Positions 59,449 to 64,000 of a stretch of DNA of 64,000 nt are shown here, piece by piece. How positions within the stretch are numbered: position 1 is the first letter of the stretch; every line of letters starts with the position of its first letter. Source of the stretch: Sphingopyxis sp. (GTDB taxonomy: Bacteria > Pseudomonadota > Alphaproteobacteria > Sphingomonadales > Sphingomonadaceae). Location: contig JBEBJX010000001.1 in assembly GCA_040079655.1 (NCBI GenBank), positions 14,060 to 78,059 on the forward strand. Reading direction: 5' to 3'. The notes beneath the pieces are model-generated. The model saw only the letters and a program-made list of their open reading frames with translations, searched no databases and had not been told where the DNA came from. A program made the translations under genes and the position numbers.

Positions 59449-60309
59449 TCAAGCGCTGGAAACCCCCGGCCGCTCGCCAATCAGATGCTCGACCAGGTCG
59501 ATCATAGCGTGGTTATATTGCGCTAAAACAAGTCCTTGTGATGCGCTGTCAAAATGGCTGACCATTTGCGCGCCATTCCAGTGGTGGAGCGCATAGCCTG
59601 GGTCGTCGGCAATGATCATCGCGCGGTCGTCGGTCGCCCTCGTGTCAATCGGGCGCAGGTCGAGCGCGACCTGTGGCGAGGTCGATGAGCAAACGATTGC
59701 AGTCAATCCATGCCATTGCACGCTCATTGACCGATGCAAATGGCCGCAAATTAGCCCGCAAAGTTGCGGCGCATCGGCGATCGCCTCTGTGAAGCGCTGC
59801 ACCCATGGCTCGCTGGGGTCGGTGGTCATCCAGTCAATCCCGCTATCGAACGGCGGATGGTGCATGACAATATAGGTTGGAAGGTGAGGATGCTCGGCCA
59901 GCCGCGATTTCAGCCACGCGGCGCGCACTTCGCAAAAAGCGCCGCCGTGCCGCCCCTCTTCCAATGTGTCGATAACGATCAGGCGGAAATCTGCGAACAG
60001 CCGATCATATTGGATGAAGCCGCTGCGATCAGCGAAATCGGGGAAAACCTCGGTAAAGGCGGTGCGGACATCGTGATTGCCGACGCACGGAAACACGGGC
60101 CACGGATAAGCCGCAAAGGCATTGCGCAACCGCACATAGCTCGCCGTATCCCCCTGATCGGTCAAATCGCCCGTCGCCAACATCAGATCAGGCGCATTTG
60201 GGCCGACTGCCAGCCTTTCCAGCACCATGTCCAGCCGCTGCTGATTATATTCATCGGGATTCCCAGAATCAAAACCGATGTGAATATCGGTGATCTGGGC
60301 GATCAACAT
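59449..60309 (-). CDS. Metallophosphoesterase, CpdA/Icc-like cyclic-nucleotide phosphodiesterase
   Basis: QITDIH, TGDLTD, GNHD, MHHPP, GHLH calcineurin-like metal motifs; GAGAGG RBS. Confidence 0.85.
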   Translation of the reverse strand: MLIAQITDIHIGFDSGNPDEYNQQRLDMVLERLAVGPNAPDLMLATGDLTDQGDTASYVRLRNAFAAYPWPVFPCVGNHDVRTAFTEVFPDFADRSGFIQYDRLFADFRLIVIDTLEEGRHGGAFCEVRAAWLKSRLAEHPHLPTYIVMHHPPFDSGIDWMTTDPSEPWVQRFTEAIADAPQLCGLICGHLHRSMSVQWHGLTAIVCSSTSPQVALDLRPIDTRATDDRAMIIADDPGYALHHWNGAQMVSHFDSASQGLVLAQYNHAMIDLVEHLIGERPGVSSA

Positions 60310-60348: not shown

Positions 60349-62205
60349 CTACCGTTGCCTATCAGAGTCTGTGATGGAAATCACTCGGCCCGATTGCTCT
60401 CGGCCTGCGGGCCCTCGGCCTCCGCGCTGTCGACGGTCTGACGATTGCGGCGGTTGCCACGGGGCATCGGCCCGCTCACCTGCATGATATTCATGGCACG
60501 AAGCGCAAGGGCTTTCGACATCCGCGCCGGAATTTTCACCGCCATGACAATCGCGGCACACCTTGATTTCAGGAATCAGCAATTGATTGGCGGAGGATGA
60601 TCGCGCGGCCAGATGGCAGGTGCTGCATGGCTCATCATTATGCGGGCGATGATCGAACCAGCCATGCTCCAGATAGCGCGCGGTCTGGGTCACGGGCAGA
60701 ACGCGCCAATTGCTGTTTCCGGCGGCGGGCGCAAATATGGTGTGGCAATCATAACAAGCCCCACCGCGTGAAAATACGGCGCGCACCGCATCATTGGCGC
60801 GTGTCGGACGCACCGTGGTTTCGCGGAAATAGATGTTATAGATTTGCCCCTGGGCAAATTCACCCGGCCTGCGCCGCGCCATCCCGCCAAGGCTGATCGG
60901 CCGTGTTGGCGGGGTAGACCGATAATAGGCATAAAGGTCAGCCACCACCTGGGCCGGCTCACCATGGCGCAATGTCCGCGTCACCCCGCCCACGCTTTCG
61001 AACGACAGGCTGTGGCATCCCTGGCAATCGCGCTCCATATCAACGGGTTCAAAACGCACGCCATCCGCCGTTGGTCTATGGCAATTGGCACAATCCAGCC
61101 CCGACTGTTGGCCAGCGTTGAGGCGCAAATGTCGCGCCATGCGCGCCACCCCGCCCGCTTGTTGCAGATGCATATTATGCGGGAACTTCAGGCCGTTGAT
61201 GTCGGTTGTCTGTGGTGTGAGGGTGGTACGGACAAAACGTGGGGCCGCGCCCGGTGCCACTTGAACCCGTGGGCGAAACTGCGGGTGCGAAGTGCCAAAA
61301 TCACCCGCATCGCCGATCCGCGTATCGGTTAACCGGCTCGACATGCCGTTGTGACAATCGGCGCAAAATGCCTGAGCGGTGGCGGGCATCGGGCCTGCAC
61401 CCTCATGCTCATTATGACAATCAACGCATCGGCCCTGTGTCCGGTTGAACGCCGCACCAATGCGATTTAATACGCCGCGGAACATCCCCGGCTCGCCGCG
61501 CGCAGCCAATTGCCGATTGATCGGCGCATGGTCATGCGCATCATCATGGCAGCTTTTACATGCCTGATCGGTCACCGCGACAAAGGCATCTGTGTGGCAC
61601 GACTGGCAATCGCGAGCCAGCGCGGCGTGCACGCTGCTCAACGGCCCCGATGACCAGCTTTGGTCAGCATGAAAGGTTGCTGGGCGCTCCTCAATTCCGC
61701 GCCACTGCATATAGGCGAATATCGGCGCAATCAGGAAAGCGCCTATGACGAGCAGCGCAAAGGCCCAGGCCGAAAGCCGCCGCCCGGGCAATTTTCCTCG
61801 CAATGAAAATGCGCGCCCCTCATCACGATCAAGCGCCGAATGGCTGAGCTCATCTGTCCGTGTTACGGTCAATGTCACGCGGGAATCAGCGGTTTCGCTA
61901 TCCAGACCAACGGTGATACGATGCCCGCCAAAGCGCAGTTCAGCGCCATCACCAGCATCAATCGAGGCGCGGGTGACCGTGCGACCATCCCATTCAAATC
62001 CAAGGCCGGTTGTCGCCTGAACCTCGATATGGCGGCCGTCATTGGAGGTGATCGTGGCGTGATGAGGGATCACCGCCAGATCGGCGAGGTGGATGTCGCT
62101 CGACGCATCACGGCCGACCGCAATTTCACGCTGCACGAGCGGCGTCGAACGGATGATTTCGCGGCCAGCGCTGGTCACCGAAACCCGGCGGAGAAGGAAG
62201 CTCAT
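60349..62205 (-). CDS. FHA-like domain + TM helix + periplasmic decaheme cytochrome c
   Basis: N-terminal VGRDASSDIHL...HHA FHA-like pattern, one TM helix, ten CxxCH (CQSCH, CKSCH, CVDCH, CADCH, CANCH, CQGCH, CYDCH, CSTCH, CRDCH, CASCH); ATG 62205. Confidence 0.85.
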   Translation of the reverse strand: MSFLLRRVSVTSAGREIIRSTPLVQREIAVGRDASSDIHLADLAVIPHHATITSNDGRHIEVQATTGLGFEWDGRTVTRASIDAGDGAELRFGGHRITVGLDSETADSRVTLTVTRTDELSHSALDRDEGRAFSLRGKLPGRRLSAWAFALLVIGAFLIAPIFAYMQWRGIEERPATFHADQSWSSGPLSSVHAALARDCQSCHTDAFVAVTDQACKSCHDDAHDHAPINRQLAARGEPGMFRGVLNRIGAAFNRTQGRCVDCHNEHEGAGPMPATAQAFCADCHNGMSSRLTDTRIGDAGDFGTSHPQFRPRVQVAPGAAPRFVRTTLTPQTTDINGLKFPHNMHLQQAGGVARMARHLRLNAGQQSGLDCANCHRPTADGVRFEPVDMERDCQGCHSLSFESVGGVTRTLRHGEPAQVVADLYAYYRSTPPTRPISLGGMARRRPGEFAQGQIYNIYFRETTVRPTRANDAVRAVFSRGGACYDCHTIFAPAAGNSNWRVLPVTQTARYLEHGWFDHRPHNDEPCSTCHLAARSSSANQLLIPEIKVCRDCHGGENSGADVESPCASCHEYHAGERADAPWQPPQSSDRRQRGGRGPAGREQSGRVISITDSDRQR

Positions 62206-62216
62206 TTTACCCGCCC

Positions 62217-63101
62217 CTACCAGTAGAAAAAAACGCTGATGATGTGTGCCGTCAGCGCCGCGATCAACGCAAATGTCATCGGCACATGGGCGTAAAGCCA
62301 TATTTCGAGCAGCGACTTAAGCTTGAGATGTCGGCGCAACCGCCCCAATGCCGCAAGCTTGCGGGTCAATAAAATATCCACTTTTTCCATTGGGTCGTGG
62401 CCACTATCGTGCTGTGGCCCAGTCTGTGCGCGCACCAGCTCTAGCGCCCTCGCCGTGTCACACCGCCGCATCCGGCCCGTGAGGCGCGACCATAGCGAGC
62501 CGGCAAAAGGGTCCTGATCGAGCGACAGGCGGACAATCTGGGCATCGGCAGGGTCGAGCGGTTGCGCGGCCGCATGAAGTTGTCGATCAAGGCCGCGAAT
62601 ATCCTCGAGCATCTGTGCCTGGGTCCGCTCATCGCGATTGTTCGAGAGCAAGGCTGGCAAGCTGCTGTAAACGGTGATGCCCCAAATCCCCGACGCAATG
62701 ACCAGCATCATCAGGCTCCAGGCCAGCGTATGGACATTCCAGCCCAGTTGAAACCCCGTGTGCAATGTGCCGATGACGACAAGCGACAGCCCCAGATAGA
62801 CATGGGCCGATGTCCATGACTTTAACGACCATGCGCCGCGCGTCATCGCCCGTTTGCGCACACCGAGCAGCGTCAGCCACAGGATCAACAGCGCGCCGAT
62901 CGTTCCAAGCGTATAGCCATACCAACTGCCACCATTATGCCGCGGGGCAACATCGACCAGCCAGTAACTGACGAAGCAGATGAGGATGATGGCGACCGCA
63001 ATTTTGAGCCACAAGAAACCAGCATGCGAGAGAAAGCCCGTGTGCAGGCTCGATCGCTGGCGTTCGCCCTGTGCGGCGCGGCGTTTGAAACGACTAGCCA
63101 T
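62217..63101 (-). CDS. Inner-membrane protein, predicted di-heme cytochrome b (ferric-reductase-like)
   Basis: About 5 TM helices; His pairs H100/H114 and H272/H286, each 14 residues apart within a TM helix; TAATG coupling. Confidence 0.6.
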   Translation of the reverse strand: MASRFKRRAAQGERQRSSLHTGFLSHAGFLWLKIAVAIILICFVSYWLVDVAPRHNGGSWYGYTLGTIGALLILWLTLLGVRKRAMTRGAWSLKSWTSAHVYLGLSLVVIGTLHTGFQLGWNVHTLAWSLMMLVIASGIWGITVYSSLPALLSNNRDERTQAQMLEDIRGLDRQLHAAAQPLDPADAQIVRLSLDQDPFAGSLWSRLTGRMRRCDTARALELVRAQTGPQHDSGHDPMEKVDILLTRKLAALGRLRRHLKLKSLLEIWLYAHVPMTFALIAALTAHIISVFFYW

Positions 63102-64000
63102 TAATCGTCATCCTGCGTCAGGCGCGCGACGGACAAAAATGCCTCTGGCGAAACGCGGATGGCCGCCCCCGTCGGGCAGGCACGCACGCACGCTGGCCCG
63201 CCCGATATTCCAGAGCACATGTCGCATTTGATCGCCTTTTTCGGCGTTTCAACCCCCTTTGGCCCATGTGCTTTTGACCATTTTTTACTCGGCTCGCCAG
63301 GTCCAGGCCCAAGCCCGAGGAACAGCCAGGACAATAGGCCTGGTTTCTTTGGCGGCGCCGCGTCCATGCGAATGACGCCATAGGGGCAGTATCGCTGGCA
63401 ATTGCCACAGCCGATGCAGGTGTCGTCTATGAACACTTCGCCATCTGGGCCGCGGTGGATGGCATTGGGCGGACAGTCAGACATGCAATGCGGATGCTCA
63501 CAATGTCGACAAGAGGTTGGCACATGAATATGCGCGAAAGTTGCGCCGGCCTCACGATCGAGGCGCGATAATCCTTCATGGCTGTCGGCACAGGCTTTTT
63601 CGCAATTATCGCACGCCACGCACAATGTCTCGTCGATGAGCAACACATCGGTCGCTTCGCCAATCCCTTTGTCCACCAGGAATTTGGCGGTTTCAGAATA
63701 GAGCTCAACCGCACTGGAAAAGCTCGCTTTGCGCCCTTCGATAAAATTATTCAGGTCTTGGCGGGCGGCCATATCACCGCGCAAACGCGCCGCCAAATCG
63801 GGCTTGGTTGCCAATATTTTACGGAATGCGGCGCCCGACACCTTGACCACTTCGGATTTGACAGCAGCCTTGACCGTAGCCGTGCGCGCACCGCCGGCAA
63901 TAACCGCCATTTCCCCGACATAGGATCCCGCTGGCAGATAAGATAAAAACACCGGCTTGCCGCCAATCTGTTTTTCAACAACCATTGACCCCTGGCGAAC
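63101..64000 (-). CDS. Cyclic-nucleotide-binding domain fused to a DmsB/NrfC-type 4x[4Fe-4S] domain; 5' part lies beyond the window
   Basis: G.YVGEMA...GARTATVKA cNMP motif; CVACDNCEKAC, CRHCEHPHCMSDCP, CIGCGNCQRYCP, CDMC...PACVRACP; frame open to the window end. Confidence 0.85.
   Translation of the reverse strand, partial: VRQGSMVVEKQIGGKPVFLSYLPAGSYVGEMAVIAGGARTATVKAAVKSEVVKVSGAAFRKILATKPDLAARLRGDMAARQDLNNFIEGRKASFSSAVELYSETAKFLVDKGIGEATDVLLIDETLCVACDNCEKACADSHEGLSRLDREAGATFAHIHVPTSCRHCEHPHCMSDCPPNAIHRGPDGEVFIDDTCIGCGNCQRYCPYGVIRMDAAPPKKPGLLSWLFLGLGPGPGEPSKKWSKAHGPKGVETPKKAIKCDMCSGISGGPACVRACPTGAAIRVSPEAFLSVARLTQDDD

Follow-up and report, generated by a model that had tools for sequence, protein, structure and literature searches.

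An FHA-fold head on a transmembrane decaheme cytochrome of Sphingopyxis and relatives: a candidate docking module in a conserved three-gene redox system

Several described systems share parts of the design considered here. The SctD protein (YscD/PrgH/EscD) of type III secretion systems (T3SS) has an FHA-like head without phosphothreonine (pThr)-binding residues, one transmembrane (TM) helix and a periplasmic domain, with the head docking a cytoplasmic assembly. GarA and OdhI of actinobacteria bind metabolic enzymes via their FHA surface, and the Tmc/Hmc complexes as well as NOX/ferric-reductase proteins combine a cytoplasmic iron–sulfur (Fe-S) or flavin donor with a membrane b-heme carrier and periplasmic c hemes. 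The gene studied here lies in a window of 64,000 nt from Sphingopyxis sp. (assembly GCA_040079655.1, contig JBEBJX010000001.1, positions 14,060 to 78,059 of the forward strand, analyzed as one whole stretch), and encodes a protein that joins an FHA-fold head, through a single TM helix, to a decaheme cytochrome (Table 1). The closest description is found in a bioRxiv preprint (10.64898/2026.01.22.701106, section 6.3.2) on the 'NHC' nonaheme of Ferrigenium straubiae, described as a cytosolic FHA followed by one TM helix and a multiheme part in the periplasm; its gene neighbors encode a protein with five TM helices and one with [4Fe-4S]. That preprint calls the FHA–multiheme combination previously unreported and leaves its function open. 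The architecture is already known from this one 2026 description, and the module is uncharacterized at the bench. All features described for NHC were found in our protein and its gene neighbors, the match being to the description and not to the Ferrigenium sequence. NHC comes from one genus of iron oxidizers and was counted with nine hemes, to be compared with a relative in our set (from locus L100) having nine CxxCH motifs and one CX3-4CH. Unlike NHC, the sphingomonad module adjoins genes for a barrel and a decaheme-propeller, and it has a phosphodiesterase gene.

The other system to be compared is ptd/PCC4. PCC4, together with the motifs of its 'IMP' membrane protein, was introduced by He et al. 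2017 (PMC5566968), and the ptd preprint (bioRxiv 10.1101/2023.11.21.568154), which names Nitrospirales and Planctomycetes as carriers, describes PtdG as a 'periplasmic deca-heme protein'; FHA is mentioned in neither.

The translation of the FHA–TM–decaheme gene comprises 618 residues, with the ATG at position 62205 beginning 11 nt past the stop codon of the upstream gene and being preceded by GGGCGGG. This start agrees with the homologues, as 86% of 44 representatives share M1 and 70% share F3, and a homologue search gave more than 1,650 homologues in total. Residues 1–118 could be assigned to the FHA fold by several independent routes. With a cut-off of 20.7, the Pfam FHA profile (PF00498) scored 21.7 bits on the protein, 26 bits on the genome translation and 29–33 bits in distant relatives. 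A profile built from 37 N-domains of the family retrieved 45 PDB chains, every one of them FHA, the top chains being GarA (E 1.4e-8), OdhI, EmbR and Rv1747. An AlphaFold2 (AF2) model based on 50 homologues had pLDDT values of 80–94 across the head, with 11 strands, as in the eleven-stranded beta-sandwich of FHA domains, and when this model was used with Foldseek against the PDB, the best 50 matches were all FHA, with target-normalized TM-scores of about 0.6–0.7 for single-domain FHA chains. No solved structure combining FHA and multiheme parts was found, either with Foldseek against the PDB or in the PDB search with the heme domain. A prediction made earlier from the sequence of this window had described an FHA-like N-domain, one TM helix and ten CxxCH motifs, all of which our analyses confirmed, and we hold the overall architecture as highly probable. 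That original prediction had also drawn an analogy to YscD-type scaffolds. The analogy holds for architecture, the layout of head, TM helix and periplasmic domain being shared with SctD, but not for family membership, since the score with Yop-YscD_cpl (PF16697) was 26.1 bits against a cut-off of 33.2; one distant relative, P0264, passes at 34.9 bits. Here a heme wire replaces the ring-building motifs of SctD, and no secretion or T3SS genes were found near the locus, where the neighbors are redox genes.

The pThr site of the head is degenerate. G31-R32 is present, I46-P-H-H49 occupies the place of the canonical S-R-x-H and there is no Asn-Gly, so that the Ser-x-x-His plus Asn-Gly pattern of pThr-binding FHA domains is lacking in this head. 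Across 70 diverse relatives, with N-domains 15–46% identical to this head, G31 and R32, the conserved Gly-Arg of the FHA beta3–beta4 loop, were invariant (70/70 each) and His49 was found in 57, while the canonical Ser was found in 13, the following Arg in 2 and the Asn in 7. The earlier observation of a retained GR, with IPHH in place of SxxH and no NG, was hence correct for this protein, and the degeneracy extends to the family as a whole. Profile searches revealed neither Pkinase nor PP2C in this 99%-complete genome, in which this head is also the only FHA domain. Of 11 carrier genomes, six (among them the present one) gave no Pkinase match above the Pfam cut-off, and five of these six gave none at E ≤ 0.01 either; Hanks kinases were present in 5 of the 11. 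Because the pThr residues are degenerate and the kinase is often missing, it appears unlikely that the head generally relies upon Ser/Thr phosphorylation. GarA and OdhI, its nearest FHA domains by both profile and fold, are small and soluble, have the Ser and Asn intact and are controlled by PknB/PknG, whereas here Ser and Asn are lost and kinases often absent. As a possible FHA ligand, a pT-x-x-D tail conserved among Fe-S subunits was considered and rejected, the LTQDDD ending found in this genome being lineage-specific.

With regards to topology, the only hydrophobic helix of the protein spans residues 146–164 by hydropathy and 143–168 in the AF2 model, and no N-terminal hydrophobic segment or signal peptide was found in the protein. 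The 15 residues before the helix have a mean of 3.2 Lys plus Arg, compared with 1.5 in those after it, and this bias was seen in 63 of the 70 relatives. Genes for Ccm-type heme attachment (CcmF/CcmC-type) are present in the genome, and the Ccm system attaches heme c covalently on the periplasmic side. Because of the positive-inside bias, the lack of an N-terminal hydrophobic segment and the need of heme attachment for the periplasm, the head is predicted to be cytoplasmic and the hemes periplasmic (N-in/C-out), with the TM helix being a predicted signal anchor; this agrees with the placement of the two parts originally proposed. Conserved residues flank both sides of the helix (F133, R143, W147, P161, W184, G187 and H193), with R143, which follows the juxtamembrane helix, kept in 69 of 70 relatives.

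The periplasmic part begins with a lead-in motif, W184-S-x-G-x-L-S-x-x-H193, followed by CxxCH motifs starting at residues 200, 216, 260, 281, 372, 394, 484, 527, 550 and 567. The count of ten had been correctly predicted, but not their close spacing, since the hemes span about 375 residues. Among 44 cluster representatives, 29–50% identical to the protein, nine Cys-X-X-Cys pairs (residues 200–553 and 567) were invariant and the remaining C487 was found in at least 90%. Ten further His residues were likewise invariant (193, 226, 267, 307, 343, 346, 414, 519, 522 and 574), and the set of ten CxxCH motifs and ten distal His is consistent with ten bis-His hemes. Pfam matches in the domain were Cytochrome_C7, c3_2 and Paired_CXXCH, and its closest solved relative was the GSU1996 dodecaheme (3ov0, E 4e-16), a c7-repeat 'nanowire' cytochrome to which the likeness did not extend to family-level sequence membership. 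The confidence of AF2 was low over the heme domain, as expected for a model without hemes, and no claims on its fold were based on that model. The domain scored far below the MtrA/DmsE family (TIGR03508, 22.3 bits against a cut-off of 192.2). The C-terminal tail past the last heme motif is basic and of low complexity, and a V608-x-x-I/V-T612 motif therein is shared among close sphingomonad relatives only.

We found this type of head to be strongly tied to its decaheme. A HMMER scan with residues 1–185 against 1.84 billion cluster representatives yielded only 301 matches at E ≤ 1e-3. The best 150 of these 301 included 45 complete decahemes, 18 truncated ones and 69 sequences too short to judge, with only three having a clearly different architecture, these being unrelated multi-FHA proteins. 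The 45 complete members had about 530–710 residues, a helix at about 140–165 and 9–10 CxxCH motifs. The FHA subfamily thereby appears to sit almost only on TM-decahemes. Among 401 sampled alphaproteobacterial genomes, 25 carried the FHA-decaheme, in about 17 families and all matching from profile position 1–4, and in a phylum-wide sample 13 of 401 genomes were carriers, including 6 of 15 from the family of the present genome. Two word-indexed homologue searches were saturated by Sphingomonadales, and the diversity considered here came from the representative and genome searches. Some members are labeled 'FHA domain-containing protein' in NCBI/UniRef, and for the distant members a cluster look-up returned a single name, 'FHA domain-containing protein [Rhizomicrobium sp.]'. 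Three sequences having the head with no or few hemes (P0137, P0207 and P0246) were rejected as frameshifted gene calls, being rich in Arg, Ala and Pro; such frameshifted public gene calls of the family mimic novel domain architectures.

The FHA-decaheme gene is the third of a fixed, co-directional trio. In 26 of 26 loci from more than 20 families, the order was a gene for a flavo-Fe-S protein, one for a five-TM membrane protein and then the FHA-decaheme gene, and the same order was seen in about 78 of 80 sphingomonad loci, and in all of those whose contigs extend far enough. The first gene runs beyond the window, and its full product of 816 residues has a Pyr_redox domain (FAD/NAD(P)H), two cyclic-nucleotide (cNMP)-binding domains and four Cys motifs for [4Fe-4S] clusters. 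The subunit had originally been called an Fe-S/cNMP protein, which was right for the Fe-S and cNMP domains but too short a description for what is a large flavoprotein. The membrane protein has five TM helices and a cytoplasmic loop of 110 residues. In it we found W96-x3-H100-x13-H114, S137-G-x-x-G141 and W268-x3-H272-x13-H286, corresponding to the two WX3HX13H motifs and the SGXXG of 'IMP' (PMC5566968). W96, H100, H114, H124, W268, H272 and H286 were invariant in 27 of 27 sequences, and the protein is a presumed di-heme b carrier across the membrane. Strong matches to it were confined to the carrier genomes of the sample and one incomplete genome of a carrier genus. With regards to its fold, an AF2 model from 21 sphingomonad sequences had a pLDDT of 63 and pTM of 0.48, Foldseek with that model gave no match at E ≤ 0.001 and phmmer against the PDB gave none at all. 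H124, the fifth His besides the two Hx13H pairs, lies in a short periplasmic loop with the sequence G-W-N-V-H.

In two genomes of one genus outside Alphaproteobacteria (L100:4868-8203 and L103:5401-8784), the flavo-Fe-S gene is fused in frame, without a stop codon, to the membrane-protein gene, with the FHA-decaheme gene still following the fusion. Because the two are fused in frame in this genus, their products probably work as one complex, and the fusion argues for a physical association between the Fe-S protein and the membrane protein. These were the only true in-frame fusions; long frames in G591 and G645 were rejected as further cases, the Fe-S frame of G591 (L116) ending in a stop.

In ptd/PCC4, the gene order of PtdE-PtdF-PtdG, with a cNMP/Fe-S protein (pfam13247), a membrane protein and a 10-heme cytochrome, is also that of our locus. 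Six further loci (L126–L131), reached via weak paralogues of the membrane protein, have the ptdABCDEFG/PCC4 make-up, with a porin, an FNR-like PtdC, a tetraheme, a cNMP/Fe-S protein of 553–582 residues without Pyr_redox, a membrane protein and a decaheme. The decaheme of these loci is homologous to and collinear with the FHA-decaheme (BLASTP blocks 184–398 and 472–592, E about 1e-6), with the collinearity beginning at the motif next to the TM helix, on its outer side, and covering all ten hemes. Its head is of another kind, about 95 residues long, cytoplasmic and Cys-rich, having four invariant and up to about nine Cys in total and no Pfam match, and it is a possible binding site for a metal or for an Fe-S cluster. 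The companion tetraheme (PtdD), the FNR-like PtdC and the ptd-type head were all lacking in our module, which has the FHA head together with the fused flavoprotein where ptd/PCC4 has the Cys-rich head and an Fe-S subunit without a flavin domain. This indicates that ptd/PCC4 would be a sister type of the present module and not the same system. The kind of head tracked the cytoplasmic subunit in all cases, with FHA found together with Pyr_redox in 26 of 26 loci and the Cys-rich head without Pyr_redox in 6 of 6, and this co-variation fits with the head contacting the cytoplasmic subunit. In the ptd-type decahemes, hemes 6 and 7 are also separated by a long acidic insert.

The FHA-decaheme protein is one fixed subunit of a conserved three-gene module by which electrons probably cross the inner membrane. 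For this module we infer heme b binding, a direction of flow and a docking partner, as follows. The flavo-Fe-S subunit would let electrons in or out on the cytoplasmic side, as controlled by cyclic nucleotides, and would exchange them with two b hemes bound to the four His that are invariant in the five-TM protein. The electrons would then pass from the b hemes to the first c heme, located just outside the membrane, with the ten c hemes relaying them towards the products of neighboring genes (pentaheme, outer-membrane barrel and decaheme-propeller). Transfer from NAD(P)H to the outside would be the thermodynamically easy direction. Passage across the membrane via the five-TM protein is much more plausible than via the single, heme-free helix of the decaheme. 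The Tmc/Hmc and NOX/ferric-reductase-domain proteins have the same module logic as the trio, with no family-level sequence membership. The head itself is free of cofactors and not part of the wire. It would hold the flavo-Fe-S subunit to the membrane subunits or position it there, most likely through the flavin or cNMP part of the former, comparable to how the FHA-like head of SctD docks its cytoplasmic complex. We give a probability of about 0.5 to this reading of the FHA head as a phospho-independent docking or assembly module. The original prediction had the protein either physically linking the cytoplasmic Fe-S/cNMP subunit to the periplasmic heme wire or signaling periplasmic redox state inward; its fold, degenerate pocket and topology stand, and the fixed synteny with the cNMP/Fe-S and membrane-protein genes supports it, while the identity of the partner and the path of the electrons had to be modified as given here.

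Some of the findings weigh against a docking role of this kind. The FHA head is retained in L100 and L103 although the Fe-S protein is there fused to the membrane protein, and because of this, simple tethering of the Fe-S subunit cannot be the whole role of the head. Arg32, which is invariant, corresponds to the Arg that contacts phosphate in canonical FHA domains and leaves room for an acidic or phosphate-like ligand, and the Ser is kept in the 13 relatives mentioned above. The label 'ferric-reductase-like' for the membrane protein, which derives from motifs and literature, was not confirmed. Finally, the correlation between type of head and flavin domain may go back to a single ancestral split, and would then count as one event and not 32. 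A tentative extension of the docking role, possible but held with clearly less confidence, is that the head is an exchangeable adaptor, FHA here and Cys-rich in ptd/PCC4, that matches the heme wire to a particular dehydrogenase, with the FHA version clamping or gating the cNMP-regulated flavo-Fe-S subunit.

Other roles for the protein were weighed against the same data. Instead of binding the Fe-S subunit, the head could self-associate or form a ring scaffold in the style of SctD or TIFA, thereby clustering the decaheme subunits. This would agree with the SctD-like layout and the Yop-YscD_cpl scores here and in P0264, with TIFA being among the Foldseek matches and with the head being kept alongside the fusions of Fe-S and membrane protein. 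We nonetheless find such a scaffold rather doubtful, as nothing in the data points to stoichiometry and a type of head that co-varies with the domains of the cytoplasmic subunit fits better with a hetero-contact than with a self-contact. It is more doubtful still that the head is a working pThr reader, binding a partner phosphorylated by a Ser/Thr kinase (a regulator, the membrane protein or the Fe-S subunit) and thereby turning electron flow on or off. GarA and OdhI, the FHA domains closest in both sequence and fold, are pThr-regulated, Arg32 is invariant, His49 is present in 57 of 70 relatives, and Hanks kinases occur in some of the carriers; however, the remaining pThr residues are mostly lost, this genome is among the six carriers in which no Pkinase passed the Pfam cut-off and has no PP2C either, and the Fe-S subunit has no conserved TxxD/I/L tail that could serve as ligand.

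Inward signaling, with the redox state of the periplasmic hemes being transmitted through the helix and the FHA head to the flavoprotein or another cytoplasmic target, would make use of the conserved residues on both sides of the TM helix, and the cNMP-binding domains as well as the CpdA-like phosphodiesterase in the Sphingomonadales operon could be seen in the same light. That idea is, however, purely inferential, with the FHA being the only candidate output domain, and a single helix would be a weak transducer unless dimerized; we therefore see little chance of it being the function. A quinol dehydrogenase role was proposed for the Ferrigenium nonaheme (10.64898/2026.01.22.701106), and the decaheme could correspondingly work alone in the manner of CymA/NapC, with its neighbors not being redox partners. 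The single N-terminal helix followed by periplasmic hemes does resemble NapC/NirT. No NapC/NirT/CymA family was however found among the Pfam or NCBIfam matches of the protein, its first heme motif is about 32 residues past the helix and it has ten hemes, as compared with the tetraheme directly after the anchor in NapC/NirT, and it is strictly co-inherited with the four-His membrane protein and the flavo-Fe-S protein, making such independent function improbable. The docking or assembly role of the head is the reading that we prefer.

What is new compared with the described systems includes the exclusivity and breadth of the FHA–decaheme pairing, the family-wide loss of pThr residues with frequent absence of kinases, the full flavo-Fe-S partner, the swap between FHA and Cys-rich heads and the fusion of Fe-S and membrane proteins. 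Should the head be an adaptor as suggested above, this would be the first case of an FHA domain acting, independently of phosphothreonine, as a structural or gating part of an electron-transfer complex of the respiratory type, and the use of FHA domains would extend from phospho-signaling to redox-complex assembly. The swap between the two kinds of head is a natural experiment on what the head contacts. The module is common, and many carriers are ordinary aerobic heterotrophs (such as Sphingopyxis, Sphingomonas and Sphingobium). A homologue of the FHA-decaheme is also present in Sphingopyxis alaskensis (P0115). If cyclic nucleotides control the module and it brings electrons from NAD(P)H out to the cell surface, abundant bacteria of soil and water would have a pathway for extracellular electron transfer that has gone unrecognized.

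Table 1. Positions of the features discussed, in window coordinates unless a locus is given
Feature	Position	Strand	Basis
FHA–TM–decaheme cytochrome gene	60349..62205	-	Open reading frame, translation, homologues, start codon and GGGCGGG motif resembling a ribosome-binding site
Predicted cytoplasmic FHA-fold head, residues 1–118	61852..62205	-	Pfam, profile against PDB, AF2, Foldseek
Juxtamembrane helix, residues 122–138, conserved F133-S-L	61792..61842	-	AF2 (pLDDT low there) and conservation
Predicted single TM helix, residues 143–168, P161 invariant	61702..61779	-	Hydropathy, AF2, positive-inside bias
Predicted periplasmic decaheme domain, residues 184–574	60484..61656	-	Invariant columns, Pfam, 3ov0 match
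C-terminal tail, residues 575–618	60349..60483	-	
Five-TM membrane protein gene, 294 residues, upstream partner	62217..63101	-	Translation, invariant W/H
3' part of first gene of the trio (flavo-Fe-S)	63101..64000	-	Extension in the same genome (L004:3161-5611), Pfam, NCBIfam
CpdA/SpdA-like metallophosphoesterase gene, downstream	59449..60309	-	Pfam Metallophos; NCBIfam SpdA/CpdA below cut-off
ptd-type decahemes	L127:6090-8402, L128:9053-11122, L129:8857-11307, L130:8770-11238, L131:9075-11840		

The phosphoesterase gene followed the decaheme gene in 80 of 80 sphingomonad loci and is a fourth operon gene in Sphingomonadales only. It was missing from that position in most other families, and in the family of locus L102 it was found about 5 kb away. 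In Sphingomonadales, a putative cyclic-nucleotide hydrolase gene is thus linked with the gene of a cNMP-binding redox subunit. In most of the Alphaproteobacteria outside the sphingomonads, the trio was followed by co-directional genes for a tandem HbpS-like lipoprotein, a barrel and a decaheme-propeller; in the present window the lipoprotein, barrel and decaheme-propeller genes lie convergent to the trio, and the pentaheme is also encoded next door.

The genome has, finally, a second and distant paralogue of the five-TM protein with its His pairs, of 298 residues, encoded in another cluster (L133:8194-13577, contig C28:20193-25576). The genes after it encode a cytochrome with 24 CxxCH motifs, another with 17 and a 322-residue protein whose N-terminus resembles a signal peptide, and this cluster looks like the 'PCC3' type of He et al. 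2017.

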